A stretch of 24,000 nucleotides of DNA from Stenotrophomonas maltophilia ATCC 19867 (GTDB lineage: Bacteria; Pseudomonadota; Gammaproteobacteria; Xanthomonadales; Xanthomonadaceae), in NCBI RefSeq assembly GCF_000382065.1, contig NZ_KB907503.1, forward strand, positions 98,682 through 122,681. Reading direction: 5' to 3'. This document shows, piece by piece, positions 2,052-18,479 of this stretch. The translations under genes were made by a program, and so were the position numbers. The notes beneath the pieces are model-generated. The model was not told the origin of the DNA and made no database searches. It was given only the letters and a program-made list of their open reading frames with translations. Positions within the stretch are counted from its first letter, which is position 1. Every line of letters begins with the position of its first letter.

Positions 2052-3427
2052 CAGGTCTCTCCGACCTCATTGCGCAGGAAGTAGTTGAACGTATGTCGCC
2101 CAACATCTGATCCCGACATACCCGGCTTCTTCAGATGCTTAGCGATCTTCTCAACCTCAGGCATCAGCGCGTCGTACTGAATCTTGACCGTTGGGATCAC
2201 CTTTCTCTTAGGCGTCTTGAAGGCCTTGGGCTTTGCTACCGCGGCAGCCAAGACGCTTACCCGTTCCGGACCGGAGGCGGTCTGTAGATCGTTGGCATCC
2301 ACCTCAGTTCCGACATCGGAGTAGCGAGAGTCCAAATAAGACACGACCTCGCGCCCGACGGCGGCCATCTCGCGCTTAGCCGTCTGCCAAGTCGAAGAGT
2401 CTTCATTGATTCCCGATTTGGTCGTCGTCCAAGGCAGCTTCTCCGGGTCCTCGGCGACAAAGAAGACCGTCCCCAAGAACGGTCGGTGCTTAGGCTGGAA
2501 GATGGGAATGGCGCCACCGCCCCAGCCGGTCAGTGCGGTCTTATCAGCCGAAACGACAGCTCGGCCATTGCAGAAGACGAACCAACCAGAAGACTTCTCG
2601 CGATACTTTCCCGCAACCGGCACACCCAAGCCCGCAGAGATTGTGCAGGTCACATCATTGATCTTCACCTGTTTGGTGGCGTGATTCTCGCTGAGATCGA
2701 TGCTGGTGCCTTCCACCTGCTCATCATTGAGGCTGATGGTGACCAGCTTACCCAAGTAATAGGAGTAGGTACGAGAGATGGCATCTCTCAGCTGCCCGTC
2801 AAAGACACCATCATTGACGCGCCGCTTTACTTCGTCGTACAGCTCAGTGACGGTAATGGTCGTACCTGTCTCGCCTGCAGGAACCGGATCTCGCTTGGTG
2901 ATCTTGAAGGTCCATTCACTGCCTTTGACTTTCGACCACTCCGACACGTTCAAGGCCAGGTCAAAGCCTCCATCAACGTGATCAGACCGCATATGGATAA
3001 CGTTGCCGAGCTTGAAGATCGCCCGCTTAAGGCCGATGCCATAGACTGACAAACGGTCTGTTACGCTTGCTGGCTCATCGCCCCGTCCAAATTTAAACAC
3101 GTGGTCCTTGGCGGTCTGAGCCGAGATGCCAGTTGCAGTGTCGACGATGACAACAGACTGATCAGAAATCTCCAAAGAGATTGAAGCCGATGGCTTTACC
3201 TTTGGGTCATCTTTGAGCTTCAGATAGTCATGCGCCGTCTTCAGCCGAGCCGCGTAGGGCTCGGCAGCCGCATTGATGGAGTTATCTACAAGATCAAGAA
3301 ACGCCGCGACCAGGGGGATGTCCCTGGTCAGCAGGGAGATAAATAGTCGCTTCTCCGGACTGGCGTCCGCTGCAAGAACTTCGTTCACCTCGGATCCCCC
3401 ATGACAGCCCGTTGCGAATGCACTCAT
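2051..3427 (-). CDS. GHKL-superfamily (MORC/HATPase_c_3-like) ATPase
   Basis: Bergerat-fold motifs in order: N-box-like FLDLVDNSINAA, G1-like VIVDTATGIS, G2-like SVYGIGLKRAIFKLG. Start set at the only ATG upstream of the conserved region (MSAFATG..., 3425-3427). The ORF is open to 3574, but that version would overlap the divergent gene. Confidence 0.8.
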   Translation of the reverse strand: MSAFATGCHGGSEVNEVLAADASPEKRLFISLLTRDIPLVAAFLDLVDNSINAAAEPYAARLKTAHDYLKLKDDPKVKPSASISLEISDQSVVIVDTATGISAQTAKDHVFKFGRGDEPASVTDRLSVYGIGLKRAIFKLGNVIHMRSDHVDGGFDLALNVSEWSKVKGSEWTFKITKRDPVPAGETGTTITVTELYDEVKRRVNDGVFDGQLRDAISRTYSYYLGKLVTISLNDEQVEGTSIDLSENHATKQVKINDVTCTISAGLGVPVAGKYREKSSGWFVFCNGRAVVSADKTALTGWGGGAIPIFQPKHRPFLGTVFFVAEDPEKLPWTTTKSGINEDSSTWQTAKREMAAVGREVVSYLDSRYSDVGTEVDANDLQTASGPERVSVLAAAVAKPKAFKTPKRKVIPTVKIQYDALMPEVEKIAKHLKKPGMSGSDVGRHTFNYFLRNEVGET

Positions 3428-3594
3428 TGAGTGTATCGCCGGGACGGCTCGTTCGCCATATGCCTGGGACAGCGTTAGAAATCCAGTGCCGCATGTAGGA
3501 ATTTCCCTACAGCAAGGACAGAGTTTACGTGTGCAACAATCGCGCTGCCCCGTTAAGGGGATCGATTCACGCACACACTCGACAGGGGAAGGCA

Positions 3595-4938
3595 GTGAGC
3601 ATCATTTTCAAGGTAATGGATCCCGAAGCCCGGACGGAGCTCATCAGGGATCTGACTGAAGAAGCTATCGCTAAGCGGCAGTACCAGAAAGAGTTCAAGT
3701 TCCGAGCCGGCATGGAGCTTCCTGTCATTGCCGTTCCGATCGAGTTGCCGGTCTATCGCCTGGAGAACTATCGCACTCGCGACCAGCAGCTGACGCTGAT
3801 CGCCAAGCGGGAGAAAGAGGACGGCCTGTTTGATGTAAGCAACACTGAGAATCCCGAGTCGCAGCTGGCGCAGCACGCCATCCTGCTGAAGCAGTCAAAG
3901 GACGGGAGTGGAGAGACCATCAAGCCCATCCATCAGGAGCTTGGCCGCGTCGGCCAACAGACGGAAAACCTGATCATCTCTGCCACCGGCATTGTAGTGA
4001 ATGGAAACCGCCGATTGGCGGCAATGCGAGACCTGCGCGGGCAGAGGTCTGAGGGCTCGGATCCGTTCAAGTACGTCAACTGCATGGTCTTACCAGCGTC
4101 GGCCACTCCGAGGGAAATTCGCGAGCTCGAGATTGCATTGCAGATGCAGCCTGAGACGAAGCTGCCCTACAACTGGACTGCTCTTGGCCGTGCGGTGCGA
4201 GACATGCTCGATGCGAACTACTCCTATGAAGAGATCGAGCGGCAAACGAACCGTAGCAGGAGCGAGCTGGACCGGGCTGCCGCAATGGTCACTGCCGCGG
4301 AGCTCTACCTGGCCTCCTGGCTGGAGAAGCCCCAGGACTTCAGCAAGCTTGACGATACCGAGCAGGCATTTGCCCAAGTAGTAGTGCGAAATTATGCCAA
4401 GCAGGACGACGCGCAGCTTCGGGAAGCCACGCGCAAGTTCGACTTCTTTGTGATTGAGCATCGCGACTTCATTAGTGATAGCGCTTACAAGCTCATCAAC
4501 GCAATTGAATCCAACCCCGAGATATTCCTGACCAACATGGCCAAGGAGTTGGACGTTGACCTCGCCCCACTTCAGGATGCGTCCGAAGAGGTGCTGGAGA
4601 TCGACTTCGGAGTTGGAGCTGATGGCGTAGCCCCTGTCAGCTACGACGCCCTGATCGATAGTCTGATGGTCGGCCGCGGTGATAAGGTCAGAGCGAAGCA
4701 ACTGATCAGTACCATCGAGGAAGTAGCCTTCGCAGCGGTTGAGCAAGGCAGGGCCCGAGACAAGGCCGCGCTCAAGTTGGTCCAGGCGGCCGAGCGAAAG
4801 CTCTCCCAGGTCGACATCAACTCAGCTGGCACCGATACCTATGCTGAAATTCTTGATCTGCTTGATCGCTGCGTAGCTCGCATTGAAAGCATCCGTAACG
4901 AGATCGGACTTCAGAATCGCGCCGGGGGCACCCATTGA
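3595..4938 (+). CDS. ParB/sulfiredoxin-like N-terminal-domain protein with a long helical C-terminal region
   Basis: LPVYRLENYRTRDQ and IVVNGNRRLAAMRDL (GNRR codons 4003-4014) match the ParB N-terminal GxRR box. GTG at 3595 is preceded by AGGGGAAGG; the alternative ATG is at 3616. The stop overlaps the next gene's start (TTGA at 4935-4938). Confidence 0.78.
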   Translation: MSIIFKVMDPEARTELIRDLTEEAIAKRQYQKEFKFRAGMELPVIAVPIELPVYRLENYRTRDQQLTLIAKREKEDGLFDVSNTENPESQLAQHAILLKQSKDGSGETIKPIHQELGRVGQQTENLIISATGIVVNGNRRLAAMRDLRGQRSEGSDPFKYVNCMVLPASATPREIRELEIALQMQPETKLPYNWTALGRAVRDMLDANYSYEEIERQTNRSRSELDRAAAMVTAAELYLASWLEKPQDFSKLDDTEQAFAQVVVRNYAKQDDAQLREATRKFDFFVIEHRDFISDSAYKLINAIESNPEIFLTNMAKELDVDLAPLQDASEEVLEIDFGVGADGVAPVSYDALIDSLMVGRGDKVRAKQLISTIEEVAFAAVEQGRARDKAALKLVQAAERKLSQVDINSAGTDTYAEILDLLDRCVARIESIRNEIGLQNRAGGTH

Positions 4939-6836
4939 GCCAACCAGCGATCGTTCTTTCGTACAACACGGTCGACCGAAGCGGCGTGTTCCGTCGAGGC
5001 ACCGGGGTCCCTAGCGATGCCTGGACCAGGCTTAAAGCTGTTGCGCAGGAAATGGATGCGGGAAGCAGAAGTGTCGGCGATGAGCTGGAAGTCCATTGGC
5101 CAGCAGCACTTAGTCTGCTGAGAGCGCTTCACACCTTGCAGAAGTCACACGGCTTTCGCTTCACCACCGACGACTCCTCCGGGGAGAGAGTCCAGCAGTT
5201 CATGCGGGACTTCCGCGCCACCCAGGAGGCGGGCGGCAGAAGCACTACCATTGATGCGCAAGAGCTCGCTGCAAGGCTTACCGCACTGGGATGGAACAAC
5301 CAGACGCATAAGCTCAAGCCCTACCAGTTGGACAATCTCGCAACGCTGCTGTCCATACGTAATGGAGCCAATTTCTCTGTCCCTGGCGCAGGCAAGACGA
5401 CCGTTACGTTCGCACTGCACTTGCTAGCCCGAAGCCCTGGCGACATCCTGATCGTTGCCGCCCCGAAGAACGCGTTTCCCGCCTGGGAGGGCATCGCAGA
5501 GGAGTGCTTGCTGCCGACGGCGGACGAGGAGCTGATGGAGGAATTCATCCCGCTGGTTGATGGCGAGGTGCGTATCCGTGCCGCCCTTGAAGGCGGCGGA
5601 CGTCGCTTCCTCATCTCCTATGATCAGCTGGTGCGGGTCGAGGCTACCTTTGCTCAGTTCATTGCCACCCACCCAGTGCACTTGGTCCTCGACGAATCGC
5701 ATCGCATGAAGGCCGGTTACAACTCACTTCGTGGCGCCAGCTTGCTGCGAATGGCCCACCTTGCTGTGAGGCGCGACATCTTGACAGGCACCCCGATGCC
5801 TCAGTCCAGCTCGGACATGCAATCTCAGCTGGATTTCCTGTGGCCGGGTGTCGGGTTGGGCTGGAAGGTGGCCGCAGGCACTGAGCCTCGAAAGGTGATG
5901 GATGGACTCTATGTCCGGACAACCAAGACACAGCTCGGCCTGCCTGAGAGGCGCCGTGAGTTTGTCCAAGCGACCCTCTCCGATGCCCACTGCGCGTTCT
6001 ACTCTGTCCTTAAGGATGACCTACGGTCTAGGGCGAGCTTGCTTCGGAAAGGGCGGACATCCCAGTCCCTCATCGCGGCCCGACGCTCTGTGGTAAGGCT
6101 TTTGCAGGCAGCTGTCGATCCCACCCTGGTCGCAGAGACGATCGATGACTTGGCAAGCCAAAACGCCAATGGGTTGCTGCGAGCAGTTCAGGCGGAAGCG
6201 CTCAATGGGCGAATTCGAGCCGCTGTGGATCTGGCCGAACGCTTGATCAGTGAGGGCAAGAAGGTGCTGATCTGGACCATCTTTACCTCTACGGTCCGCA
6301 AGCTGCGCGATGTTCTTGCCCACCACAACCCTGCCCTAATCTATGGCGAAATCGGCATGGGTGAGGCAGATGACCTGAGCACGCGCCAAGGCAACCTGGC
6401 CCGCTTCAAGAATGATCCCAATTGCCGCGTGATGATCGCCAACCCTGCGGCGGCCTCGGAGGGCATCAGCCTGCACATGCATTGCCACGATGCAATCTAC
6501 GTGGATCGTAGCTACAACGCGACCCACTTCCTCCAGTCCATCGACCGAATTCACCGACTGGGGCTGCCGGCCGATGTCGTCACTACGGTGTACGTCATCC
6601 AGAACCGGCTACCGGCTGGAATCGGCTCGATCGACGTGTCCGTTAGCCGGCGTCTGGGCCAGAAGATCCGAGCGATGGAGAAGCTTCTGGAGGATCCGGA
6701 CCTGAATGATCTTGCCCTGGACGAGGAAAACGCTCCGGCATCGCTGGCAGATGAGCTCGACGCCGAGGATATCGATGACATCATCGCCGAGCTCGAGGGC
6801 AATCCCCCTCCGGCAACTGACGAGGATCTGGTGTGA
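4935..6836 (+). CDS. SNF2-family (SF2) helicase/translocase
   Basis: Motif I VPGAGKTT (Lys codon 5394-5396), motif II LVLDESHRMK (DESH 5691-5702), motif V-like MIANPAAASEGISLH, motif VI QSIDRIHRLGL. TTG start overlaps the upstream stop. The C-terminal tail is acidic. Confidence 0.9.
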   Translation: MSQPAIVLSYNTVDRSGVFRRGTGVPSDAWTRLKAVAQEMDAGSRSVGDELEVHWPAALSLLRALHTLQKSHGFRFTTDDSSGERVQQFMRDFRATQEAGGRSTTIDAQELAARLTALGWNNQTHKLKPYQLDNLATLLSIRNGANFSVPGAGKTTVTFALHLLARSPGDILIVAAPKNAFPAWEGIAEECLLPTADEELMEEFIPLVDGEVRIRAALEGGGRRFLISYDQLVRVEATFAQFIATHPVHLVLDESHRMKAGYNSLRGASLLRMAHLAVRRDILTGTPMPQSSSDMQSQLDFLWPGVGLGWKVAAGTEPRKVMDGLYVRTTKTQLGLPERRREFVQATLSDAHCAFYSVLKDDLRSRASLLRKGRTSQSLIAARRSVVRLLQAAVDPTLVAETIDDLASQNANGLLRAVQAEALNGRIRAAVDLAERLISEGKKVLIWTIFTSTVRKLRDVLAHHNPALIYGEIGMGEADDLSTRQGNLARFKNDPNCRVMIANPAAASEGISLHMHCHDAIYVDRSYNATHFLQSIDRIHRLGLPADVVTTVYVIQNRLPAGIGSIDVSVSRRLGQKIRAMEKLLEDPDLNDLALDEENAPASLADELDAEDIDDIIAELEGNPPPATDEDLV

Positions 6837-7663
6837 ACCGGGAGGCCGCTGCGGCCTCCTTTCTAAAGCCCTCGGTGGTATCTGGGCTGGCGCTACTGCG
6901 CAAGCGGGCCGCTCAGGCGCCGGGTCAGCCATGGGAGGTCACCGTTCGCTTGGCCGCGGCAAGCCATCAGGGGCAAGGGGTTGATCTTGATCGCGCGTGC
7001 CAGCTGCATGAGCTGTTGCCTGCTGACCTGGTGGACAGTCCCGGCTTGTATCGAGCGGCCATACTGCTCACAGCCAAGCAGCTGCCTCCGTGGCTGGGGC
7101 AGCTCCGATCGGGGCGGGAGTTTCTCAGCGACGCCGGCGCGGATCTGCGCTCCTGTTTTGAGAGGGCGGGCGCGCTGGATGCGGCACCCGATCAGACGGT
7201 CATCAGCTGGTGGGACGACTTGGCAGGCCTGGCCTACGGTACGTTGAACCAGGCCAAGATGGACGTAGGCAGACGTGCGGAGCGCCTCAGCTTGGAAAGG
7301 GAGCAAAGGCGGCTGGAGTCTTTCCCCGGGCATCCTCCGATCCAGTGGACTGCCCTGGACTCCAACGCCGCCGGCTATGACATCCTTTCCTGGTCAAAGC
7401 GGGATGGCCATTGGTATCCGATGTACCTAGAGGTCAAAGGCTTTAGCACCTCCCCGGCCAAGCTCTACCTGACCCGAAACGAGTGGGAAACGGCCAAGCG
7501 CCTTGCCGATGACTTCCACTTTCAAGTGTGGGATGTGGGCTCGAACAGGATGGCCCAGCTATCCACAAGCCAAATGCTTCCCCATGTTCCATCGGACGAG
7601 GGCATGGGTCGGTGGGAGGTGCTCTGTGTCGAGGTTTCTGAGGACTTTTTCACCCCCGCGTAA
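6833..7663 (+). CDS. DUF3883 (NOV C-terminal)-like protein, restriction-endonuclease-fold PD-(D/E)xK candidate nuclease
   Basis: GRRAERLSLEREQRRL...AAGYDILSW...MYLEVKGF...LYLTRNEWETAKRLADDFHFQVWDV follows the DUF3883 pattern. Candidate catalytic residues are D183 (7379-7381), E200 (7430-7432) and K202 (7436-7438). GTG start overlaps the SNF2 stop (GTGA 6833-6836), with GAGGA 6 nt upstream. Confidence 0.75.
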   Translation: MNREAAAASFLKPSVVSGLALLRKRAAQAPGQPWEVTVRLAAASHQGQGVDLDRACQLHELLPADLVDSPGLYRAAILLTAKQLPPWLGQLRSGREFLSDAGADLRSCFERAGALDAAPDQTVISWWDDLAGLAYGTLNQAKMDVGRRAERLSLEREQRRLESFPGHPPIQWTALDSNAAGYDILSWSKRDGHWYPMYLEVKGFSTSPAKLYLTRNEWETAKRLADDFHFQVWDVGSNRMAQLSTSQMLPHVPSDEGMGRWEVLCVEVSEDFFTPA

Positions 7664-7700
7664 CCCTCCTCCTTGTCCCTCAAGGGCTTGACCGGGTAAC

Positions 7701-7746
7701 TTGCGCCCAAGACAGGGAGATCTATAATTCTGGCAGATCTTAGGAG
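7701..7746 (+). promoter_or_regulatory. Sigma70-like promoter and RBS of the methyltransferase gene, flanked by two AGATCT palindromes
   Basis: TTGCGC (7701-7706), 16-nt spacer, TATAAT (7723-7728). AGATCT at 7718-7723 overlaps the upstream edge of the -10, and AGATCT at 7735-7740 sits near the predicted +1. AGGAG (7742-7746) lies 6 nt before the ATG at 7753. Confidence 0.55.
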
Positions 7747-7752
7747 CAGAGC

Positions 7753-8670
7753 ATGCCATATCGTCGCGCTACCGCAGCATGGAGCCATTTGGACGCCAAG
7801 GAGGGCAGCTACGCGCTACTGAATGGCGACTGCGTTGACCTGCTCCGAGCCCTGCCTGACGAATCCGTTTCGTTGGTCGCGACCTCCCCCCCATATTGCA
7901 TGGGGAAAGAGTATGAGGCGGGGAACACCATCGATGACTTTATTCTCGCCCACGACAAGATCCTTCCGGAAATACTTCGGGTGGTGAAGCCCGGCGGAAG
8001 CATCTGCTGGCAGGTGGGTTATCACGTCGACAACAGTCAGGTCATGCCACTTGACTACCTTGTCATGGATGCGATGCGCAAGCTCGCCGATCCCCCGGTC
8101 CTACGCAATCGAATCATCTGGACGTTCGGCCATGGCTACCATTGCGAGCGCAGGTTCAGCGGCAGACACGAGACCATTCTTTGGTACACCAAGGGTGGCA
8201 GCTATCCCTTTGATCTGGACTCGGTGCGTGTCCCTCAGCTTTATCCAGGGAAGACTGCGAACAAGGGGCCGCTGAAGGGACTTCCAAGTGGCAACCCCCT
8301 GGGCAAGAATCCTGGCGACGTCTGGGACATTCCCAACGTCAAGTGGAATCACGTTGAGAAGCTGGATCATCCGTGTCAGTTCCCCGTCGCGCTGATCAGC
8401 AGACTGGTGAACTCCATGACGCTGCCCGGAGACATCGTGCTGGATCCGTTTGCAGGTGTTGCGACCACGGGCGTCGCCTCACTCCTTGCCGGCCGCCGAT
8501 TCATCGGGGCCGAGCTGGACAGCAAGTACGCCGACATTGCGGACAAGCGGCTGAGAGAGGCCGTCGAGGGAACGGTGCGCGTCCGGGAAGACAAGCCCGT
8601 TCAGCCCCCGAGCCCCCGCAGCAAGCTTGCGATCAGGCCCGACAACTTTAAGAACTTCGATGCGCTTTGA
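7753..8670 (+). CDS. Beta-class (motif IV before motif I) N4-cytosine/N6-adenine DNA methyltransferase
   Basis: Motif IV VATSPPY (SPPY codons 7885-7896) is N-terminal. Motif I VLDPFAGVATTGVASLLAGRRFIGAELD is C-terminal. This is the N6_N4_Mtase architecture of M.PvuII/M.RsrI type. SPPY rather than DPPY leans towards N4-cytosine, but specificity cannot be read from sequence. Confidence 0.9.
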   Translation: MPYRRATAAWSHLDAKEGSYALLNGDCVDLLRALPDESVSLVATSPPYCMGKEYEAGNTIDDFILAHDKILPEILRVVKPGGSICWQVGYHVDNSQVMPLDYLVMDAMRKLADPPVLRNRIIWTFGHGYHCERRFSGRHETILWYTKGGSYPFDLDSVRVPQLYPGKTANKGPLKGLPSGNPLGKNPGDVWDIPNVKWNHVEKLDHPCQFPVALISRLVNSMTLPGDIVLDPFAGVATTGVASLLAGRRFIGAELDSKYADIADKRLREAVEGTVRVREDKPVQPPSPRSKLAIRPDNFKNFDAL

Positions 8671-8858
8671 TCTGCTGCTGCTTTGCACGGTGGCCCTGCA
8701 GCGGCCATCCTGAGGCCCCTCCTGGAGCAGTAGGCTAAGCCAGATGCTTGTCACTCTGGCCGCGGGTACCGCAGCCCGTCCTCGGTCGGAGTTCCAACGC
8801 CAGCCGCCGATTCGAATTGGGGGTAGCATGGAGTTCTGCTTCCCAAGAGCCGAAGAAC

Positions 8859-9266
8859 ATGAGCAGACCAATTGCTGCGCCCGATGGCGAGCTTGCAGGA
8901 CCTGCCTTGCGAGCCTTCACTCAGATTGCCGAGGCCTGGTCCCTGACAGAGCTGGAGCAGTGGGCGATTCTCGGTCAACCAGTGGACGCCGCCTTCGCGG
9001 TGATCGACGCTGGCGATGTGGACGACCTCTGGCCGGACACTCTTGAAAGAGTGAGCTACGTGCTCGGCATCTATCGTGCGCTGCACACGATCTTTTCCGA
9101 TCCAGAGCAAGCAGATTCTTGGGTGCGCCGCCCCAACGCCGCCCCCGCGTTCAACGGTTCAACAGCGCTGGCGCTCATGTCTAGCGGCAGGCTCAGCGAC
9201 CTTGCGTCGGTGCGACAACACTTGGAGGCTGGCGGATGGATCAATCCTGAGGCACCAGCCACTTAG
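8859..9266 (+). CDS. DUF2384 / Xre-MbcA-ParS-type antitoxin-like protein (toxin-binding domain), orphan
   Basis: AEAWSLTELEQWAILGQP...LERVSYVLGIYRALHTIFSDPEQADSWVRRPNAAPAFNGSTALALMSSGRLSDLASVRQHLEAGG follows the DUF2384 pattern (eRl..l..i...l..lf.....a..Wl..pn..l.g.tPl.l......G...v...L). Start set at ATG 8859; the ORF is open from 8748. Confidence 0.72.
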   Translation: MSRPIAAPDGELAGPALRAFTQIAEAWSLTELEQWAILGQPVDAAFAVIDAGDVDDLWPDTLERVSYVLGIYRALHTIFSDPEQADSWVRRPNAAPAFNGSTALALMSSGRLSDLASVRQHLEAGGWINPEAPAT

Positions 9267-9323
9267 CGATATCGCGCGAAGCAAGAACCTGTGCTGGAGC
9301 CAGTTTGCCACCCTTCTTTGAAG

Positions 9324-9343
9324 TCGAGAGCTAGAGCTCTCGA
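9324..9343. terminator. Hairpin between convergent genes (possible bidirectional terminator)
   Basis: TCGAGAGCT (9324-9332) / AGCTCTCGA (9335-9343), a 9-bp inverted repeat. It lies in the 107-bp gap between the DUF2384 gene end (9266) and the HEPN gene end (9374). There is no clear U-tract on either strand. Confidence 0.4.
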
Positions 9344-9373
9344 TCCTCAAGTGCGGATTGGCCGAACTGCGAA

Positions 9374-10735
9374 CTATGCCCGCTGGTTCTTCGCCGGTAG
9401 CAGAGGCACACCCCGATCCAGCAATTCATCCAGGAAGGCATCGCGCACCAATGCCTGGTCGGACTGGTTGGCCAACACCAGGCTATCAACCACGCGCCTG
9501 GCAAGCGTACGGGCCCGAACTCGCAGAAGGGCCGGGATCGCCTGCATCGATCTACCGTGCAAGAACTCGCTGCGCAGCTCGAACAGCTCCCTGTAGTCGG
9601 AGGTGGCCTGCTCATCGAGCAGCGCCACCAAACGAGCGCACACTCTTTCAGTCGCCCCAAGCTTATCGTGAGTGCCGACGCCCGAGCTGGACTTACGCTT
9701 GTAGTCCAACGGCAGGCCGAGCGCCGCCTCGATGGCAAGAAGATGAGACATGAATTCGTCGATGCCATCAGTCAAGAAGGCACGGCAGAAAAAGTGGGCT
9801 ACAGGTGTCTGGAACAGCTGCAGCTGAGGCAACTGTGCGATCGCCTGGGCGCGGCCCGCGAAATGTTCGGTAAGAGCGTCCGCCGATCCATCTCTCAGCC
9901 ACATTGCAACGGGCTGAGAGATGTCGACCGATCGACCTTCCGCGTCATGGGCGATCCGATCCTCCCAAGTGAGGGTATCCGAGCTGGGCGGCCGCTTCAT
10001 GGTGGAGAACAGATCATGGTCCACCGAGTACAACCAGGGAATCTGCATCCCACGCCATTCAATGTGTGGCGCATCTGACCAAATTTCCCACGGTGCCAGC
10101 GCTAGCCAGAACAGTGCCGTCTCAACGGCCTCCGGATACTTTCCTCGATGAGGTTCGATGCGCCCATAGTCCTGTTTCGGATCGAACGAGAATCGGAACA
10201 GCTCTCGGCCTTCAGGGCCACGACGGATCGACACTTGTTCCCTCACGACCAGCCATTGAAACTGGGAGAACTCGTCAAGGTCAAAGCTCTTCCCTGGATG
10301 GACTCTCTCCATGCGATCAAGGTCAACAAGCTCGGCAAGCTCGTCCTTGGTCAATCTGCCAACCACCGCATTACCGAAACACGCCATTGGAAGGCCGTCT
10401 GCAAGATCCAGAGGCATCAGATGGACTCGCGTGAAGCAGGTTGCTTCCAGCGCGGCCTGTAGCCGTTCCGCAGCCTCCCTTGCCGTCATCGCCAAGTGCT
10501 TCTTGGATTCAGGCAACCCACACGGCAGACCAAGGCCGGCCAGCGCACAGGACATGGATATGCCACCGAAGAATCTCCGCGCGTCTGCAGAGTAGGGCTC
10601 AATCGCGTCCACCAGCTGTGCGTAGAGGGGGGTCTCTGTCAGATTCTTCCACGCGGAGTCGGGAAGCTGCCAGAGCGCCTCCATTGCACCTACGAGTTGT
10701 GAGGAGGGAGCCCCGGCCACCGAGCTGCTGATCAT
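9374..10735 (-). CDS. Protein with uncharacterised ~300-aa N-terminal region and C-terminal HEPN-like domain (R-x4-H)
   Basis: 453 aa. The C-terminal segment FFCRAFLTDGIDEFMSHLLAIEAALGL...YRELFELRSEFLHGR carries R388-x4-H393 (codons 9572-9574 and 9557-9559), the HEPN RNase signature, after an LE-A-L helix typical of Abi/Apea-like HEPN domains. The ATG overlaps the TIR gene stop (ATGA). Confidence 0.68.
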   Translation of the reverse strand: MISSSVAGAPSSQLVGAMEALWQLPDSAWKNLTETPLYAQLVDAIEPYSADARRFFGGISMSCALAGLGLPCGLPESKKHLAMTAREAAERLQAALEATCFTRVHLMPLDLADGLPMACFGNAVVGRLTKDELAELVDLDRMERVHPGKSFDLDEFSQFQWLVVREQVSIRRGPEGRELFRFSFDPKQDYGRIEPHRGKYPEAVETALFWLALAPWEIWSDAPHIEWRGMQIPWLYSVDHDLFSTMKRPPSSDTLTWEDRIAHDAEGRSVDISQPVAMWLRDGSADALTEHFAGRAQAIAQLPQLQLFQTPVAHFFCRAFLTDGIDEFMSHLLAIEAALGLPLDYKRKSSSGVGTHDKLGATERVCARLVALLDEQATSDYRELFELRSEFLHGRSMQAIPALLRVRARTLARRVVDSLVLANQSDQALVRDAFLDELLDRGVPLLPAKNQRA

Positions 10736-11841
10736 ATCTTCAGCCTCCGCAGCAACTTCTCCAGTCCTTCCTCATACTTCTCCGCGCTGGAGAAGTCGGC
10801 GTAGAGCTTCCCTTGCAAGAAAGCAGGGATATCGCAATCCTCGAAGAGCATGGGCAGGACAACGACTTCGCCGCTACTGATCTCGCGGTTCATGGCCACA
10901 TCAAGCTCTTTCTTGACCCAAGGCGCAGCGATCGACTTCTGCGACAGGACTACACCGACGTATCGGCTCATTACCATTCCCTCGTCAATCTTTGCGATCA
11001 GCGAGTCACCCACTTGTATCTCGGCTTCATCCAGCCAGACCTTTGGCACGCCTCTTTCCATCAGGTCACGCCTGAGCTTCCTGACGAACGGCTTGTCGGC
11101 ACTGGTATGGCTAAGGAATATCCCATGGTACCTGGGGGCTTCTGGCTCCGCCTTGCTCACGGCCAGAGCGCCCAAGATGAGACGGTTGGTCGCTTCCTGC
11201 GTCAACGGCGGAGTTATCAACCATCCTGTGGTTGCACCGATCTCAACTCTGGCTCCAATTTGGTAACCCTCCGGCGTCGCCGCAATCGTAGTCAAGCCCG
11301 GTTGATCGTTCTCCAGCGCGATCCTCCAGCCGCCGAGAGTGGCCAAGTCCCCGAAGTAGGAGGCGAAGGGCGTATCGGGATCTATGAAACCCACTCGCCT
11401 TCCCTTCTTGATTATCTGACCCCCACGCCGAATCGCGGCTGTCATCGCCGGCGCCAGATACCCCAGGCTCGTCTCTCGATAGCCGAAGAAGTTCATTCGC
11501 CGTGGCTCGGCCATGCACCAGACCACGGTCGCACCCACGGCCATGGCGGCCTCCAGCTCGTTCTGGCGGTCCACACTGTCAAAGACGTTGTCCAGATCAT
11601 GCTCTCTGTCGTCCGCTTTCAGCTCCAGAAGCTCCTGATCTGAGCCAGAGTGCACGCCCTCTTTGCCGAACAGGAAGTGGCTGTAGCTCTGTGGATTGAT
11701 AACGATGACGTCATACTCATAGAGCGGGTACGCAGCCCTGGCCTCATCGATGTCTGATCGGCAAAGTCCGAGTTGCTCGAACTCCACACCTTCAATCGGG
11801 GTGCCGGTGTATTGCATACCGACAGTCAGCACTCTCTTCAT
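10732..11841 (-). CDS. TIR-domain protein with an uncharacterised ~235-aa N-terminal alpha/beta domain
   Basis: 369 aa. Residues ~238-369 (approx. 10735-11130), YHGIFLSHTSADKPFVRKLRRDLMERGVPKVWLDEAEIQVGDSLIAKIDEGMVMSRYVGVVLSQKSIAAPWVKKELDVAM, match bacterial TIR_2. This includes the W...E glutamate (E312, 10906-10908). A strong SD (AAGGAGAG) lies 5 nt upstream of the ATG at 11841. Confidence 0.87.
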   Translation of the reverse strand: MKRVLTVGMQYTGTPIEGVEFEQLGLCRSDIDEARAAYPLYEYDVIVINPQSYSHFLFGKEGVHSGSDQELLELKADDREHDLDNVFDSVDRQNELEAAMAVGATVVWCMAEPRRMNFFGYRETSLGYLAPAMTAAIRRGGQIIKKGRRVGFIDPDTPFASYFGDLATLGGWRIALENDQPGLTTIAATPEGYQIGARVEIGATTGWLITPPLTQEATNRLILGALAVSKAEPEAPRYHGIFLSHTSADKPFVRKLRRDLMERGVPKVWLDEAEIQVGDSLIAKIDEGMVMSRYVGVVLSQKSIAAPWVKKELDVAMNREISSGEVVVLPMLFEDCDIPAFLQGKLYADFSSAEKYEEGLEKLLRRLKI

Positions 11842-12144
11842 GGGTTCTCTCCTTGCTCACCATTGTTCGTCGGTCACCGACGATCCACGCTGTTCCGCCC
11901 TACCCATCCGCACTGTTGCGAAGGGAACGTTGAAATTGCTGTTGCAGAGCAACTCTGGAACTGCCGCTTTCAGGGCCACCATGAATACAACAAGCTCCAT
12001 CGCAACCTAGAGGTCAGATCCCGATGCGGCGGCTGACCGGCGATCCGACTGAGGTGTGGACGATCTTGGCTGGAGGGTCATCTGCGTGGCAAGCGGCGCG
12101 ACACCCAGTCGCTCCAGGCGCCTCTCATGCGCCCAATGTGCCTT

Positions 12145-12194
12145 CCCCATCCCCATCCCCATGCTCCTTGCAACTTGCAACTTGCAACTTGCAG
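12145..12194. repeat. Adjacent short tandem repeats: (CCCCAT)x3 then (CTTGCAA)x3 plus CTTGCAG
   Basis: CCCCAT at 12145-12150, 12151-12156 and 12157-12162. CTTGCAA at 12167-12173, 12174-12180 and 12181-12187, followed by CTTGCAG at 12188-12194. Each heptamer contains the palindrome TTGCAA. Confidence 0.9.
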
Positions 12195-12543
12195 TTGAGG
12201 ATCATTCTCAAAGTTGCGCAATTGACACTTTTGCTCGCATCCGAGGGGCCTTGTCGGGGGAGCGAGCCGCTCGCGGGGATTGCCCCGCCCGGGGCGCTTG
12301 AATGCCAGGTTGTACGCCCCGCTCGGGACCCTTCACATTGGTCCTTTCACGTCCGATTGTGCTTGTAAATAGCATGCTTGCTTCATGTCCTACAGCCGTC
12401 CCGGCTGCCCTCCCCCCCTTCCCAGCCGGGGTAGACCGCCATGGCTGGCGACCTGCCACAGCCGGTCTCAGTCTGGGAGATGGGGGCATGTTGTACTTGC
12501 AATGAAAACCGGGTGCTACAATTTCCAAACGATGGGGACCGTC

Positions 12544-13071
12544 ATGACGACAATGTGGAAAGAACCTGAAGCACTGGGCTGGAACCGTGCCGAGGTGTCT
12601 GCGCTTGCCTCCGATGCGGTGAAGGAACTGGGCTTCTCCCCTGGGCAGCCCATTGAGCCAATCGTCCATCAGCTCGGCGGTAAGATCGTCTACGGCGAAC
12701 TCATCGAGGATGAGTCGGATTCTGGCTCGATTCGCATCGAGAACGGCAAGTTCACCATCAACATCCCCTTCAACACGAGTCCCCTGCGCGATCGATTCAC
12801 CATCGCCCATGAGATAGGTCACTTTGTTTTGCACTACCTGGTGCAGAACAAGATGAACAAGAAGAACATCACGCACCTGCGCGCTCAGCGGTATGGAAAG
12901 GACCAACCTGAGATCGAGGCCAACTGGTTCGCTGCTGCATTCCTGATGCCCAGCGATACCTTCCGCAGGGTCTACCAAGAACTTGGGAAGGACACGCTGA
13001 AGGTAGCGGAGTACTTCAAGGTTTCGCCCAGCGCAGCGAGCGTGAGGGCCCAGTCTCTCGGCCTTTCCTAA
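12544..13071 (+). CDS. ImmA/IrrE-family (M78, COG2856-like) zinc metallopeptidase
   Basis: FTIAHEIGHFVLH (HEIGH codons 12808-12822) is followed by PEIEANWFAAAFLMP, the HExxH...E.EAN.FA..fLmP signature of ImmA/IrrE peptidases. Start is uncertain: ATGs at 12502, 12532, 12544 and 12553. 12544 has GGGGA 5 nt upstream, and TACAAT lies at 12517-12522. Confidence 0.85.
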   Translation: MTTMWKEPEALGWNRAEVSALASDAVKELGFSPGQPIEPIVHQLGGKIVYGELIEDESDSGSIRIENGKFTINIPFNTSPLRDRFTIAHEIGHFVLHYLVQNKMNKKNITHLRAQRYGKDQPEIEANWFAAAFLMPSDTFRRVYQELGKDTLKVAEYFKVSPSAASVRAQSLGLS

Positions 13072-14436
13072 GTGCCGAGGTCTGGCCTGAGCAAAGGCGA
13101 CGTTCGCGAGTCGCTTGAGCCAAAACTGCGTCTATTCCTGAGCGCAGACATTGTGGGCTCCACCGCGTTCAAGCAGCGCTCTGGCGAAGGCTCTGAACAA
13201 TGGTTCCGCTTGGTACGCACCTTCTACATGATGGCGGAGCGCTACTTCGCGTTCCGCTGGTCTTTGGCCAAGGATAGGTATCAGGACGCAGAACGCCCGC
13301 TGCTCTTTGGCGACGCCGCTCCCGAGCTGTGGAAGACCGTGGGTGATGAAGTCCTCTTTACCAAAGAGATTGCCCATCCCTCGGAAGCCATGATGTGCAT
13401 GAGCATCTGGCTGCAGGTCCTGGAAGATTTGCGTCAGTTGCTCGATAAGAGCGGTTTGGACGTCAAGTCCTCGGCCTGGCTCGCTGACTTCCCGATTCGC
13501 AATCGGGAGATTTTCCTGCACACCGGCGCGCCGACCAAGACCGATGATGGCGCGAAGAACGACCCTCCGCCTCAGACTGATGTCGCCGACCGCTCCAACG
13601 ACCCGACGGAGGATCTGGAGTGGGAAAATGACAGTCTGTTCGACAGCTACAAGGCACGCTTGCCTGGGGTAACACGCGACTTCATTGGCCAGTCGATCGA
13701 CACCGGCTTCCGCGTCAGCACCGCGGCGTCGTCGCGTAAGCTCATGTTGTCGGTGGAACTTGCGCACATGCTCAGCATGGAGTGCGAACGTTTGGATCTT
13801 GATCCCTACCGAATCGGTGCCTTCCCTGTCCGCAGCTTCACCTTTCACTACGACGGACGCAATGCTCTCAAAGGCGTGCTCAACGGCACGCCCTATCCGC
13901 TAATCTGGCTCGATGTTGAGCCGGCAAAACGAATCCACGTCACCGAGGATGTCCTCAGCGCCAGGCCCAAGCCAACGCCGCGACAGATCCACGAGTTCAC
14001 CACGGCGCTGATCACCGAGTTCCCCACCCGGTTCTGCTCGATGCTGGAGTTCCTGGATGGCCCATGCCCGCCGGCATACGAAGAGTTTGAAAAGAGCCTC
14101 ACTGATTCGATCAAGAAGCTCCACCAGCAGTTCACCGACCGGGAAGCGAACATTGAGCTGAAGAAGTTGGCCGTTGGCATGCCTGAGGACGGTCCACGCA
14201 ATGTTTCTGCCGATTTCAAATCCCTTCTGCAGCCCGCCGATGCCGGCAAGCCGCCCAGTTCCTCCCGCAAATCTCGCCCGCAGAAAGCAGCTAAGGCCTC
14301 GTCGAAGTCGGCTCGGAAGGTGGTAACCAACGCTCCGGGTAAGACCAGCGGGACGCCCCCTGTTGCGGCGGCCAAGAAGGCTTCTGCGAAGAAGACCCGT
14401 GCGAAGAAGGCGGCGAAGGCCCCCCCTCAAGACTAG
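13072..14436 (+). CDS. Divergent class III nucleotidyl (adenylyl/guanylyl/pyrimidine) cyclase-like protein with a C-terminal Lys/Ala-rich histone-H1-like tail
   Basis: LFLSADIVGSTAF (Asp codon 13147-13149), LWKTVGDEVLF (Asp codon 13345-13347) and DFIGQSIDTGFRVSTAA parallel the class III cyclase motifs F.D..GST, K..GD and G..vN.A.R. The last ~60 aa are KAAKASSKSARK...AAAKKASAKKTRAKKAAKAPP. GTG start lies directly after the ImmA stop (TAAGTG, 13069-13074). The first metal-binding Asp requires a start at or near this position. Confidence 0.6.
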   Translation: MPRSGLSKGDVRESLEPKLRLFLSADIVGSTAFKQRSGEGSEQWFRLVRTFYMMAERYFAFRWSLAKDRYQDAERPLLFGDAAPELWKTVGDEVLFTKEIAHPSEAMMCMSIWLQVLEDLRQLLDKSGLDVKSSAWLADFPIRNREIFLHTGAPTKTDDGAKNDPPPQTDVADRSNDPTEDLEWENDSLFDSYKARLPGVTRDFIGQSIDTGFRVSTAASSRKLMLSVELAHMLSMECERLDLDPYRIGAFPVRSFTFHYDGRNALKGVLNGTPYPLIWLDVEPAKRIHVTEDVLSARPKPTPRQIHEFTTALITEFPTRFCSMLEFLDGPCPPAYEEFEKSLTDSIKKLHQQFTDREANIELKKLAVGMPEDGPRNVSADFKSLLQPADAGKPPSSSRKSRPQKAAKASSKSARKVVTNAPGKTSGTPPVAAAKKASAKKTRAKKAAKAPPQD

Positions 14437-15319: not shown

Positions 15320-15644
15320 GGGTACTCCTCCGCCGCAACATCTCTAGCCCCATCTGGATCGATGGGGCGCCATTTCGCCTACTTTCGCATTGCGAGTTAT
15401 CGGCTGTCCGTCGCCGAACTTTACAGCTCTCCTCATGGCTTGGGCAGAGGGAAGATTCTCCTATTCGCGCCGCAGGCTGCGTACTCGCCCCTGTCGATTC
15501 AGCGCTGCTGGACTCGTACAGTTCTACTTTGACCTGGCCTGCGCTATGACTTACCGTCCGCATGGACCCACAGGGTCTACAGACCATGCTGAACCAAGCA
15601 TGGCAACGCAACACTCGATAGACTCAGAAGGGAGTGGACACGGA

Positions 15645-16577
15645 ATGTTTAAGCGTTTTGATGAGAGCTATGCACAGCTAGTCAACTTCTTTCCGGATTT
15701 GACGTTTGTTTCTCCTGAAGAGGCGCGCTCGGATGAGGTGCTCTCTACATCCGTTGCCATCGTCGATCAGCTTTGCCGCAGCTTTTTTGCCTATCGCTCG
15801 TCACAGGTTCACGGCGTGTGGGGGATTGAAAACTCCTACGACGAGAACGCCTTTGTGAGTACCCTCAATGGCTGTTCAAGCATCGTCATCACTCGTGGCG
15901 CTTGCGTTCGGCTCGCGCGCGTAGGAAATTTTTTTGCGACTCACGATTGGATAAGCAACAGTGAACGGATGCGTCCGTTCCACGACGCTATTGACGTACC
16001 GCGGAACAGATTGGGCGAGGCCACGCAGATGCTTGGTTTGGCGGCCCTGTTCGGTCATGAAGTGGGCCACGCAATGGACCGGCACAACGTGCACAGCATT
16101 GCCGGCCAAAAGCAGGAGGCGCAGCTCGGCGAGGAGATATCGGCCGATGGTCGAGCAATCCTTCATGGGCTTGATATCGTGGATGCGTGGGCCCACAGCT
16201 TGGCCACGGGGCATGAATCGGAGCAGGACGCGATCAAGCAGGCAGGTGCTGTCCTTCTTGTGATCGCAAATGCCGCCATCGACAGTATCCACCTCGACCG
16301 CAGCTGGGATGTTCCGGCCAATCAGACGCACCCACCTGGCGCCCAGCGTCTTCTTGCCACATGCATAATGCTCGATCAGTACTTTGACGGCGTCGCTGAA
16401 GAGGGATTTGGGCTCAAAGTGTTCTTGACCGCCCTCTCAGGGCTCAAGGAAATGGGCATTTACCATGGCCCGGTCGAGGAGGAGGCGCTGAGGCAACTGT
16501 TGGCGATCTACGATTCAGCAGCGGTCGTCGCGCAGTACAACGCCCTGCAAGCGACACTGATCGAGCGAGGGCTCTGA
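15645..16577 (+). CDS. Hypothetical HExxH zincin-like metallopeptidase
   Basis: LAALFGHEVGHAMDRH (HEVGH codons 16056-16070) is followed 17 aa later by GEEISADGRAIL, a possible third-ligand Glu as in ImmA/SprT-like zincins. Start set at ATG 15645, with AAGGGAG 9 nt upstream. The alternative ATG is 15600 and the ORF is open from 15390. Confidence 0.55.
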   Translation: MFKRFDESYAQLVNFFPDLTFVSPEEARSDEVLSTSVAIVDQLCRSFFAYRSSQVHGVWGIENSYDENAFVSTLNGCSSIVITRGACVRLARVGNFFATHDWISNSERMRPFHDAIDVPRNRLGEATQMLGLAALFGHEVGHAMDRHNVHSIAGQKQEAQLGEEISADGRAILHGLDIVDAWAHSLATGHESEQDAIKQAGAVLLVIANAAIDSIHLDRSWDVPANQTHPPGAQRLLATCIMLDQYFDGVAEEGFGLKVFLTALSGLKEMGIYHGPVEEEALRQLLAIYDSAAVVAQYNALQATLIERGL

Positions 16578-17286: not shown

Positions 17287-18249
17287 CTAGATGTCAATCT
17301 CGACGTACTCGTGACGAACATGGCTGAGGAGTTTCGGAAGTAGCAGACGCATCCGGTCCAACGCGACTTCGATCTTCTGCCAGACGATCTCCTGATCTGG
17401 GGAAAGAGACGCATCTCCAGGATTGGAGAAGAAATATCGGCTTCCGTCCGGCGCGGGGCGATAGACCTGCCAGTAGCGCACGGTCTCGGCAAATTCCTCT
17501 TCGAACTGAATGAGAAGCTCATGAGCCGCTGCGTCATGGAGATGAAACGAGCTTGCCGCAAGCACGCCGCTGAAACACTCATACATATCGACCGTGTTTG
17601 ATGTGAGCACGCGAGGCGCCCACTGCATATGAACATCCAGAACATTCAAATCAAGCGTAGATATCACCCTTCTCAGCGCGGCCAGGTCGCGAGAGCGCCT
17701 CAGCTGCTCCGGCGACTTCTCCGCACCGGGCTTATCTGGTGCCAAGCTGATCAACGTATCAACAGCAACGCTCAATAGCGACAGGAGGCTATCCTTCTGA
17801 TTCTTGGTAACAGGCTCGCTCGCCTTGTAGCCAGAGGCGCGTTGCCGATCAATATCAAACGGCATATCTGAAAGCGGACCGAACTCCTCATTTACAAGCA
17901 GGATGATGCGCCCCCAGCCCAGCATGGCGACCGCATAGCCAAGCTCGAAAATCACGTTGGGGTTGGGCACCCTCCTGTCAGATGGTGCGGCGCTCTTGTT
18001 GATCGTAGATACGTCGCAGATGAAGTAATCTGCCTTGCGTATCTTCTCCAGAATCGTCAGCGGAACGTTCTGGCTACCAGAGGTCTCGCGAGTTGCCTCA
18101 TCCAACGTAATGGACAGGCCAGAGTGCTTTTCTTCGGCAGCATTGATGGCCAAGCGCAGCTGCTTCTTGATCAGCTGGCGATTGGTCGCATTGGGCAGAT
18201 CGCTCTGCCAAGAGTAGAAGATGGTCCTGGTGGTGGTTTCGCTGGTCAT
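17287..18249 (-). CDS. Nucleoside 2-deoxyribosyltransferase-like / TIR-like (Rossmannoid) N-terminal-domain protein with an uncharacterised C-terminal domain
   Basis: From ATG 18249: MTSETTTRTIFYSWQSDLPNATNRQLIKKQL...KADYFICDVSTIN...VPNPNVIFELGYAVAMLGWGRIILLVN. The aD..i.d......pN.nV.fElGyA...g...i.l block resembles the catalytic-Glu region of the NDT/DrHyd and TIR-like assemblage. The ORF is open to 18339. Confidence 0.6.
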   Translation of the reverse strand: MTSETTTRTIFYSWQSDLPNATNRQLIKKQLRLAINAAEEKHSGLSITLDEATRETSGSQNVPLTILEKIRKADYFICDVSTINKSAAPSDRRVPNPNVIFELGYAVAMLGWGRIILLVNEEFGPLSDMPFDIDRQRASGYKASEPVTKNQKDSLLSLLSVAVDTLISLAPDKPGAEKSPEQLRRSRDLAALRRVISTLDLNVLDVHMQWAPRVLTSNTVDMYECFSGVLAASSFHLHDAAAHELLIQFEEEFAETVRYWQVYRPAPDGSRYFFSNPGDASLSPDQEIVWQKIEVALDRMRLLLPKLLSHVRHEYVEIDI

Positions 18250-18479
18250 GCTGATGGCAATCGGGCTAAGGGTTGCGAGCATGGAGAGGTTCGCCGCGGC
18301 GGTCAACACAGAGTAGGCGCACGCGGCTCCACACAACATCCATCTTCTGGACCGGTCTCCGCCGATACCCTAAAGGCCGACAGCCGGAGTAGCCGCTCGC
18401 ACCCCGGCTATCGGCAACGGCAAGGCGTAGCGCGCACTCATAGGCAGCGATGAGAGCTTCCGCCTCCCGGCACCGACAC

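Follow-up and report, generated by a model that had tools for sequence, protein, structure and literature searches.

We analysed a stretch of 24,000 nucleotides of the Stenotrophomonas maltophilia ATCC 19867 genome (contig NZ_KB907503.1, positions 98,682 to 122,681 of the forward strand), here called the window, in which two overlapping genes on the reverse strand encode a TIR domain protein and an unannotated protein with a HEPN-like C-terminal domain. Gene 1 (positions 10732-11841 of the window) is an open reading frame for a sensor-TIR protein of 369 amino acids (WP_019661568.1-type), which comprises an N-terminal domain and a TIR domain indicated by a match to the Pfam family TIR_2. Gene 2 (9374-10735), hereafter G, is an open reading frame for a protein of 453 amino acids, for which an AlphaFold model was evaluated. 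The sources name the two genes 'TIR domain-containing protein' and 'hypothetical protein', respectively, and nothing more. Moreover, literature searches by keyword or accession yielded no prior description of the pair or of the G family, and PADLOC 2.0 contains none.

Layout of the locus and the TIR protein

Direct reading of the junction (...CTG AAG ATA TGA of gene 1 overlapping ATG ATC AGC of G) revealed that the stop and start codons share the tetranucleotide ATGA (10732-10735, reverse strand). In addition, a Shine-Dalgarno-like GGAGG for G is located within gene 1 (10744-10748, reverse strand), 8 nucleotides before the ATG, and the sequence AAGGAGA lies 6 nucleotides ahead of the gene 1 ATG. 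This layout indicates that gene 1 and G are translationally coupled, in line with the original prediction made for this locus from its sequence. Some RefSeq models of G (WP_134709226.1 and WP_032955482.1) begin at Met18 and comprise 436 amino acids, so that the ATGA overlap is lost. Because the residues N-terminal of Met18 are conserved in the family, with A17 being nearly invariant, we prefer the start that yields 453 amino acids. The region 5′ of gene 1 (11842-12384), which is bordered on its other side by a divergent M78-peptidase gene, is presumed to contain the promoter. Simple scans of positions 9100-12450 identified neither a sigma-70 consensus nor an intrinsic terminator. The same intergenic region harbors two adjacent perfect tandem repeats, TCCCCA in 3.2 copies (12144-12162) and CTTGCAA in 3.9 copies (12167-12193); within this shared promoter region they may serve as an array of binding sites for a regulator or constitute a tract prone to slippage.

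The TIR domain of gene 1 comprises amino acids 236-369 (10735-11136, reverse strand) and was assigned to an AbTir/BtTir/TcpB-like group by Pfam, Foldseek and a residue alignment. Residues 241-364 match Pfam TIR_2 with an E-value of 6.4e-27, and the score against Pfam ThsB_TIR was 13.6 bits, which is under the cut-off of 21.2. By sequence and fold the nearest solved relatives are AbTir, BtTir, PdTIR and BtpA/TcpB. Correspondingly, Foldseek matched BtTir, PdTIR, BtpA and AbTir with E-values of 3.5e-7 to 1e-5, and the target-normalised template modelling scores were 0.7-0.76 for the structures 7uxr, 3h16 and 7uwg. At the residue level, the sequence W-V-K-K-E-L-D of gene 1 pairs with W-T-N-Y-E-L-D of AbTir, so that the predicted catalytic residue E312 (codon 10906-10908, reverse strand) corresponds to AbTir E208. 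In the gene 1 family alignment, which has a mean identity of 62%, W308, E312, G278 and S280 are invariant and equivalent to AbTir W204, E208, G174 and S176. The AbTir residue E208 has the key role in catalysis, the E208A variant being inactive; W204 is the most informative position for cyclase activity, and the BB-loop residues G174 and S176 are required (10.1101/2022.05.07.491051). The gene 1 product thereby combines the TIR fold with the catalytic glutamate, the αC tryptophan and the BB-loop glycine and serine of NADase TIRs. Since the AbTir-equivalent residues are invariant, the TIR is predicted to be active and of the type that produces 2′cADPR, an isomer of cyclic ADP-ribose (cADPR). We therefore predict that it is an NADase with a cADPR isomer as a probable by-product. 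The C-terminal TIR domain with a catalytic-type glutamate at position 312, as originally proposed, is thus borne out.

The remainder of the protein is an unannotated and very conserved alpha/beta domain (amino acids 1-235; 11137-11841, reverse strand), as delineated by the model and the family alignment. The original prediction could not place this domain, and neither could we: in 20 members it matched no Pfam family, even at E-values up to 10. The predicted structure is mixed alpha/beta, with a predicted local distance difference test score (pLDDT) of about 85-90, and the only lead is a weak Foldseek match over 226 columns to a GH42 glycosidase (5xb7_E, E = 5e-4). The full-length protein retains about 60% identity over alpha-, beta- and gamma-proteobacteria, and remoter members of the family occur in Nitrospira and Pelosinus. 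A role as a Cys-nucleophile amidotransferase-like enzyme was rejected, as C109 is replaced by L or I throughout one subclade. In a Pelosinus sp. (L075:6001-8010), a protein of 669 amino acids has no TIR; instead, a gene 1-type N-domain with about 40% identity is fused to a PNP_UDP_1 nucleosidase domain (1e-11), and a helical extension follows at the C-terminus. This fusion hints at an effector role for the TIR. An 'effector swap' as a general rule was rejected, given that this is the one PNP_UDP_1 fusion and that a TIR is present in 103 of 105 N-domain relatives. The gene 1 protein, with a conserved control domain of its own and also found alone, looks self-contained.

The G family and its HEPN-like domain

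The G protein was unmatched in Pfam, PADLOC, NCBIfam, PHROGs and PDB sequences. Nevertheless, the family is large. A word-indexed search returned more than 175 relatives, and an exhaustive profile search placed at least 817 clusters at 50% identity in the family with E ≤ 1e-3, 240 of them with E ≤ 1e-30. The AlphaFold model is a confident single body (pLDDT 88.4, predicted template modelling score 0.87). According to the predicted secondary structure, the N-terminal region (amino acids 1-300; 9836-10735, reverse strand) consists of seven helices followed by a mixed alpha/beta part, and amino acids 301-453 (9377-9835, reverse strand) form a helical, HEPN-like domain.

Residue conservation was scored on 208 family members, 84 of which are representatives of divergent clusters. 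The C-terminal domain contains the sequences LLAIEAALG and RSEFLHG, and R388, H393 and G394 are invariant in all 208 relatives; the codons of the Rx4H motif R388-S-E-F-L-H393 occupy 9557-9574 (reverse strand). The residue following R388 is S, C or N in 207 of the 208. Moreover, position 336 is E or D throughout the 208 relatives, and in the window this conserved acidic residue, E336 (codon 9728-9730, reverse strand), is located in the helix spanning residues 324-339, the putative HEPN helix-2. In the model the C-terminal domain proceeds from helix 312-321 to helix 324-339, a variable loop of low confidence (340-360), helix 361-372, helix 375-392, which bears R388 near its end and is followed by H393 as the first loop residue, and helix 402-425. 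Members of the HEPN superfamily are characterised by an Rx4-6H motif with a polar residue after the arginine, and a conserved acidic residue, if present, is located in helix-2 (PMC3710099). Both the motif with its polar residue and the topology described there are found in G, the latter in its predicted secondary structure.

Attempts to confirm the assignment by profiles (Pfam, NCBIfam and PDB profiles, 23 members) brought up no HEPN family. Likewise, transitive homology was pursued by the exhaustive profile search, where the best 150 matches were all strong G members and provided no bridge to an annotated family. Weak HEPN/Csm6 echoes recurred in two structure libraries, and hhalign comparisons of the C-terminal domain with a single TIGR02391 (Ymh-HEPN) sequence and with the alternative partners described below aligned the Rx4H motifs without significance. 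Of the originally proposed HEPN assignment, the motif has stood and is joined by its invariance and a fitting topology, whereas a significant profile or fold match was not obtained. For this reason we use the term HEPN-like: the motif and the topology make membership of the superfamily plausible, short of a demonstration of homology. The invariant R-S-x3-H-G together with the helix-2 glutamate most likely forms a putative metal-independent RNase site.

The N-terminal region of G bears highly conserved residues as well (D110, D189, W216, E217, W227, W234 and D241). Foldseek searches against PDB and BFVD returned nothing significant for G, and the N-terminal part of about 300 amino acids is without a detectable relative of known fold. 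This bears on the relay put forward in the original prediction, a Thoeris-like arrangement in which the TIR protein, on sensing infection, would produce a messenger of the cADPR type; bound by the N-terminal region of G, this messenger would switch on the HEPN RNase. The size of this uncharacterised region would leave room for a pocket. However, the SLOG, Macro, CARF, SAVED or STING-like module sought there was found in G by none of Pfam, PADLOC and Foldseek, and the conserved N-region residues are alike in TIR-paired and unpaired members.

Pairing of gene 1 and G and their occurrence apart

The co-occurrence of the two families was surveyed from both sides. The survey seeded with gene 1 used one genome per species and scored a TIR as solo if a full-length gene 1 was followed by at least 1.5 kb of downstream sequence without G, and the survey seeded with G used metagenomes and scored a locus as TIR-less if at least 1.2 kb upstream contained no gene 1. 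In 41 of the 64 evaluable gene 1-seeded loci, which derive from different species, G was located directly 3′ of gene 1 with overlapping reading frames, and gene 1 occurred without G in the remaining 23, which have no other neighbour in common; among the 59 evaluable G-seeded loci, 16 were TIR-paired and 43 lacked gene 1, all of these proportions being indicative only and not unbiased, as the locus sets were retrieved by peptide patterns with up to 80 loci per scan. The co-occurrence outside the source genome on which the original prediction depended is therefore real, though not exclusive.

Where paired, gene 1 and G form a stable unit. Their identity matrices correlate with r = 0.969 (Mantel p = 0.001, 35 unique pairs), and overlapping TIR/G junctions were also seen in distant relatives among the alpha- and gamma-proteobacteria. 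On the G tree, the TIR-paired state appears in one crown clade and, separately, in a small clade that holds the G of the window, the nearest neighbours of which lack a TIR. All deep branches of the gene 1 tree are solo; in this tree the clade of the window is sister to a solo gamma/beta clade, and the nearest relatives of the window's gene 1 are without G.

At TIR-less loci, G is coupled by overlaps of 12-15 nucleotides to other upstream genes, which belong to several unrelated clusters, and at about 10 of these loci there is no co-directional gene upstream. A remote homology of the alternative partners to the N-domain or TIR of gene 1 was rejected, since the hhalign probabilities were below 1%. 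In Rhizobium and Mesorhizobium, G is preceded by proteins of about 197 amino acids; in Xanthomonas it stands alone on a conjugative element and in Bradyrhizobium alone ahead of an AddAB-like pair. In Stenotrophomonas, G is also found within a Tn7/Mu-like transposon after a 497-amino-acid gene of no assigned family. At these loci of the S. maltophilia group (L157/L158:1-6470), the G homologue comprises 489 amino acids, is 62% identical to that of the window and, together with the 497-amino-acid gene, constitutes cargo beside Mu-transposase-C, TniB and TniQ genes, that is, of a Tn7-like transposon.

In an alpha-proteobacterial clade the gene calls indicate a three-gene operon, X-TIR-G, with overlaps of 4 nucleotides and 1 nucleotide, and the majority of the alpha-proteobacterial versions include this additional gene X. 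Its first product, protein X, is an unannotated protein of 211 amino acids (L165:4257-4892; also L164, L166, L086, L087 and L162). At L086, L087 and L162 the same protein X is the upstream partner of G and the TIR gene is absent. By eye, X contains HPDGEH...D...AECKGG, which is reminiscent of PD-(D/E)xK nucleases; no profile matched, and the resemblance is unconfirmed. The two-gene TIR-G form occurs on the Ti plasmid of Agrobacterium tumefaciens Ach5, where the overlap is again 4 nucleotides. We looked for protein X in the window, where it is absent. A census of architectures at 167 loci counted X-TIR-G 44 times, TIR-G 17 times, X-G 7 times and X-TIR 7 times (mostly truncated or decayed), in addition to 64 loci with G but neither X nor TIR and 28 with the TIR alone. 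At no fewer than 7 of the TIR-G loci the upstream sequence is ample enough to show that X is truly missing.

At the cluster-B loci (such as L128:5344-6762), G is coupled to an upstream protein of 248 amino acids with an Rx4H-like RRNSLAHG motif of its own, and in several of them PD-T7-1 (PADLOC, 2.4e-87) follows 33 nucleotides 3′ of G. As read from the motifs, a double-HEPN arrangement is possible at these loci. The motifs noticed by eye in the partner clusters (RRNSLAHG in cluster B, D..E/QxK in X and cluster C, and NVLIELGWA at L153) were not confirmed by Pfam, PADLOC, PHROGs or PDB; of these, only the TIR-like NVLIELGWA of L153 gave weak TIR-family matches.

The window as a whole is a dense defence island, and relatives of G adjoin PD-T7-1, Hachiman, pPIWI-RE, Mrr, Eco57I-type methylases and U49 peptidases at various loci. 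On pTiAch5 the neighbours of TIR-G are an ABC-three-component system (ABC-3C), a PIN protein and a TIGR02391 protein. We found G on 28 plasmids, of which 21 are conjugative, and on no viral contig of IMG/VR. Downstream of G, positions 1098-8670 are occupied by a block encoding Methyltransf_35, a GHKL ATPase (HATPase_c_3), an unannotated protein of 469 amino acids, an SNF2-type helicase, NOV_C and an N6/N4 DNA methylase, with the last four reading frames overlapping or abutting; the block looks like an uncharacterised restriction/modification-type defence system. Convergent with G lies a forward-strand gene (8748-9266; Pfam 4.1e-8) for a protein with an Xre/MbcA/ParS-type antitoxin C-terminal domain. 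It is an orphan in that the customary following RES toxin gene is missing, it is confined to the clade of the window, and the insertion of the TIR-G cassette may have displaced it and left it as a remnant. A RES toxin or an Xre/MbcA antitoxin as a recurrent partner was rejected, each being a one-off neighbour.

On the other side of the cassette, forward-strand genes for the M78/IrrE-like peptidase (7.7e-22) and an unannotated protein of 454 amino acids (12385-14436, boundary at 13071/13072) possibly form a two-gene unit of their own; the latter protein has a Lys/Ala-rich C-terminal tail and matches phrog_18024, which has no assigned function, at 6e-28. A few kb from TIR-G, a homologue of the U49 (Lit-like) peptidase is encoded on the forward strand (15390-16577), as identified by Pfam at the identical locus L160. 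U49 peptidases are also found near alpha-clade X-TIR-G operons (L164:1520-2950; L165:293-1234), and the copy in the window is not BLAST-similar to these. A conserved third component of the cassette in the window was rejected, as BLAST detected no counterpart of the M78 block, the 454-amino-acid gene or the U49 gene near the alpha-clade loci. A second, unrelated TIR-like protein of the CAP12/Pycsar-effector type (17287-18339, reverse strand; 4.9e-7) adjoins an NrsF-like gene, and the window also holds DUF3800 and DUF4365 genes. The G+C content is 55-63% throughout, which is lower than the value of about 66% that we take to be typical of Stenotrophomonas chromosomes and consistent with a horizontally acquired island.

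Interpretation and comparison with known systems

Taken together, we favour a modular abortive-infection cassette in which G is a hub with interchangeable partners, here a sensor-TIR NADase, with probable cooperation between the two proteins. We assign this reading a probability of roughly 0.4. The cassette would be a horizontally mobile two-gene element of the abortive-infection type, with each module able to stand alone. The gene 1 protein would serve as sensor-effector, its conserved N-domain controlling an AbTir-type TIR NADase; upon activation the TIR would consume NAD+ and probably release a cADPR isomer as a by-product. G would act as the hub, combining a novel N-terminal region of about 300 amino acids with a C-terminal HEPN-like four-helix domain, a probable RNase. 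Its coupling would extend to interchangeable upstream partners, that is, the sensor-TIR, the 211-amino-acid X, several unrelated small proteins, or none. Produced from one mRNA, the gene 1 protein and G would most likely act jointly, as a complex or via mutual gating, and infection would unleash both NAD+ depletion and RNA cleavage. In a broader version, which we put forward tentatively, G would represent a new and widespread hub-immune family of a Lamassu/retron-like class, with a novel sensor region and a HEPN-type RNase, and would recruit and gate interchangeable upstream effectors by direct protein contact, among them the sensor-TIR NADase, X and several more unannotated proteins; Ti plasmids and Tn7-like transposons would be its carriers.

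Several observations weigh against the modular cassette. With respect to the HEPN-like domain, no HEPN model of Pfam or NCBIfam matched the C-terminal domain of 23 G members at E ≤ 10, the PDB profile search with this domain was empty, and the HEPN echoes obtained with Foldseek were non-significant (Csm6, E of about 3 and probability 0.2; the archaeal HEPN protein AF_0298, E 5.7; a phage HEPN, E 4.7). Solo occurrence was judged within about 1.2-1.5 kb, and partners encoded elsewhere would be missed. Tight co-divergence is expected anyway when two genes, whichever they are, are inherited together on a cassette. Furthermore, the PNP_UDP_1 fusion is a singleton set against the 103 of 105 N-domain relatives that carry a TIR, and the TIR, in retaining the cyclase-associated tryptophan, may yield a signalling product. 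Finally, defence function, NADase activity, RNase activity and physical cooperation are properties that we infer.

Another way to explain the locus is that the sensor-TIR and the HEPN-like abortive infection (Abi) protein are two independent single-gene systems, adjacent and co-transcribed on a mobile island and without functional interaction. That both families are also found alone, that defence genes cluster densely at these loci and that shared inheritance alone would give the observed co-divergence is in keeping with such an explanation. It is at odds with the maintenance of stop/start overlaps across alpha- and gamma-proteobacteria, with the presence of this same pairing in two distinct clades on the G tree and with the nearly constant tight coupling of G to an upstream gene. 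The latter suggests that G works with partners, and we consider mere adjacency unlikely.

Considerably less probable is a toxin-antitoxin-like pair, primarily an addiction module of plasmids and transposons, in which one protein (for example the sensor-TIR or the N-terminal region of G) would restrain the toxicity of the other until infection strikes or the element is lost. Ti plasmids, conjugative plasmids and a Tn7-like transposon carry members of the cassette family, many HEPN proteins are toxins of toxin-antitoxin systems (PMC3710099), and an overlapping two-gene layout is typical of type II systems. However, catalytic residues of the toxin type are present in the two proteins and neither is antitoxin-like, both are found alone without an obvious neutraliser, and the upstream partners are large and diverse instead of being small DNA-binding antitoxins.

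The messenger relay of the original prediction fares worst: the conserved, co-diverging and translationally coupled pair and a TIR with both the catalytic glutamate and the cyclase-marking tryptophan, the latter being the main reason why we keep the relay alive, are offset by the 43 of 59 G loci that lack a TIR and couple G to non-TIR partners or to none, by X-G operons from which the TIR gene is simply absent and by the 23 loci at which the TIR protein, with its own sensor-like domain, is solo. Because most of the family is without a TIR, the N-region residues are the same in paired and unpaired members and no known nucleotide-sensor fold was found, a receptor in G dedicated to the TIR signal is disfavoured, and coupling at the protein level is more likely than a diffusible messenger that the TIR makes and G reads. 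The fallback of the original prediction, a dual effector in which an NAD-depleting TIR has an ApeA-like HEPN protein as its partner, is closer to the evidence; membership of G in the ApeA family did not hold, since no ApeA/HEPN_Apea model of PADLOC or Pfam matches G at E ≤ 1.

If functional, the cassette would add a combination of NAD+ depletion and a probable RNase to bacterial immunity. More important is the exposure of the large G family itself, whose active-site-like motif is absolutely conserved and whose members populate defence islands, Agrobacterium Ti plasmids, conjugative plasmids and a Tn7-like transposon. With TIR-G, X-TIR-G, X-G, G alone and TIR alone, nature provides a ready genetic dissection of the sensing and killing modules, and gene 1 contributes an N-terminal domain that is very conserved, could not be placed and would control a TIR NADase.

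Among the known systems, Thoeris (ThsB and ThsA) shares with the cassette the defence-island setting and a TIR enzyme with a catalytic glutamate that is encoded beside a second protein bearing a toxic-type domain. In contrast to Thoeris, neither a SLOG nor a Macro sensor is present in the partner G, each of the two genes also occurs without the other, G also pairs with non-TIR genes, and gene 1 has a large N-domain of its own joined to a TIR of the AbTir/BtTir/TcpB-like group. As both the SLOG/Macro effector and obligate pairing were looked for and found wanting (43 of 59 and 23 of 64 loci unpaired), we do not regard the cassette as a member of Thoeris. It also differs from HEPN-MNT and type II toxin-antitoxin systems, as there is no small cognate antitoxin and the upstream gene encodes a 369-amino-acid TIR protein; Pfam detected neither an MNT nor a helix-turn-helix domain in gene 1 or G. 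Modular systems such as Lamassu, retrons, CBASS and HerA-based systems likewise have one conserved protein, in the present case G, with different unrelated neighbours in each lineage. However, the G core contains no NTPase, reverse transcriptase or cyclase and has an effector-looking HEPN-like domain instead, and its partners are mostly unannotated.

Closer likenesses are found for the two proteins taken singly. HEPN Abi proteins (ApeA, AbiD/F, AbiV and AbiJ-type; Anantharaman et al. 2013) resemble G in that a non-catalytic N-terminal region precedes a helical domain at the C-terminus that contains an invariant Rx4H, and they occur as lone genes in defence islands and mobile elements in variable combination with other effector genes. 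G differs from them in that it has no detectable sequence similarity or significant structural similarity to any of these proteins, in its novel N-terminal region and in its usual translational coupling to an upstream partner. With the sensor-TIR NADase effectors (TIR-SAVED, TIR-STING, SPARTA TIR-APAZ and AbTir), gene 1 shares the full NADase residue set and the fusion to a non-catalytic control domain, although its N-domain is not a SAVED, STING, APAZ or coiled-coil domain and matches no family. Taken together, the cassette resembles known TIR NADase effectors and lone HEPN Abi proteins, and its main value lies in the large G family, unannotated in Pfam, NCBIfam, PADLOC and PHROGs, and in the series of architectures in which G occurs.

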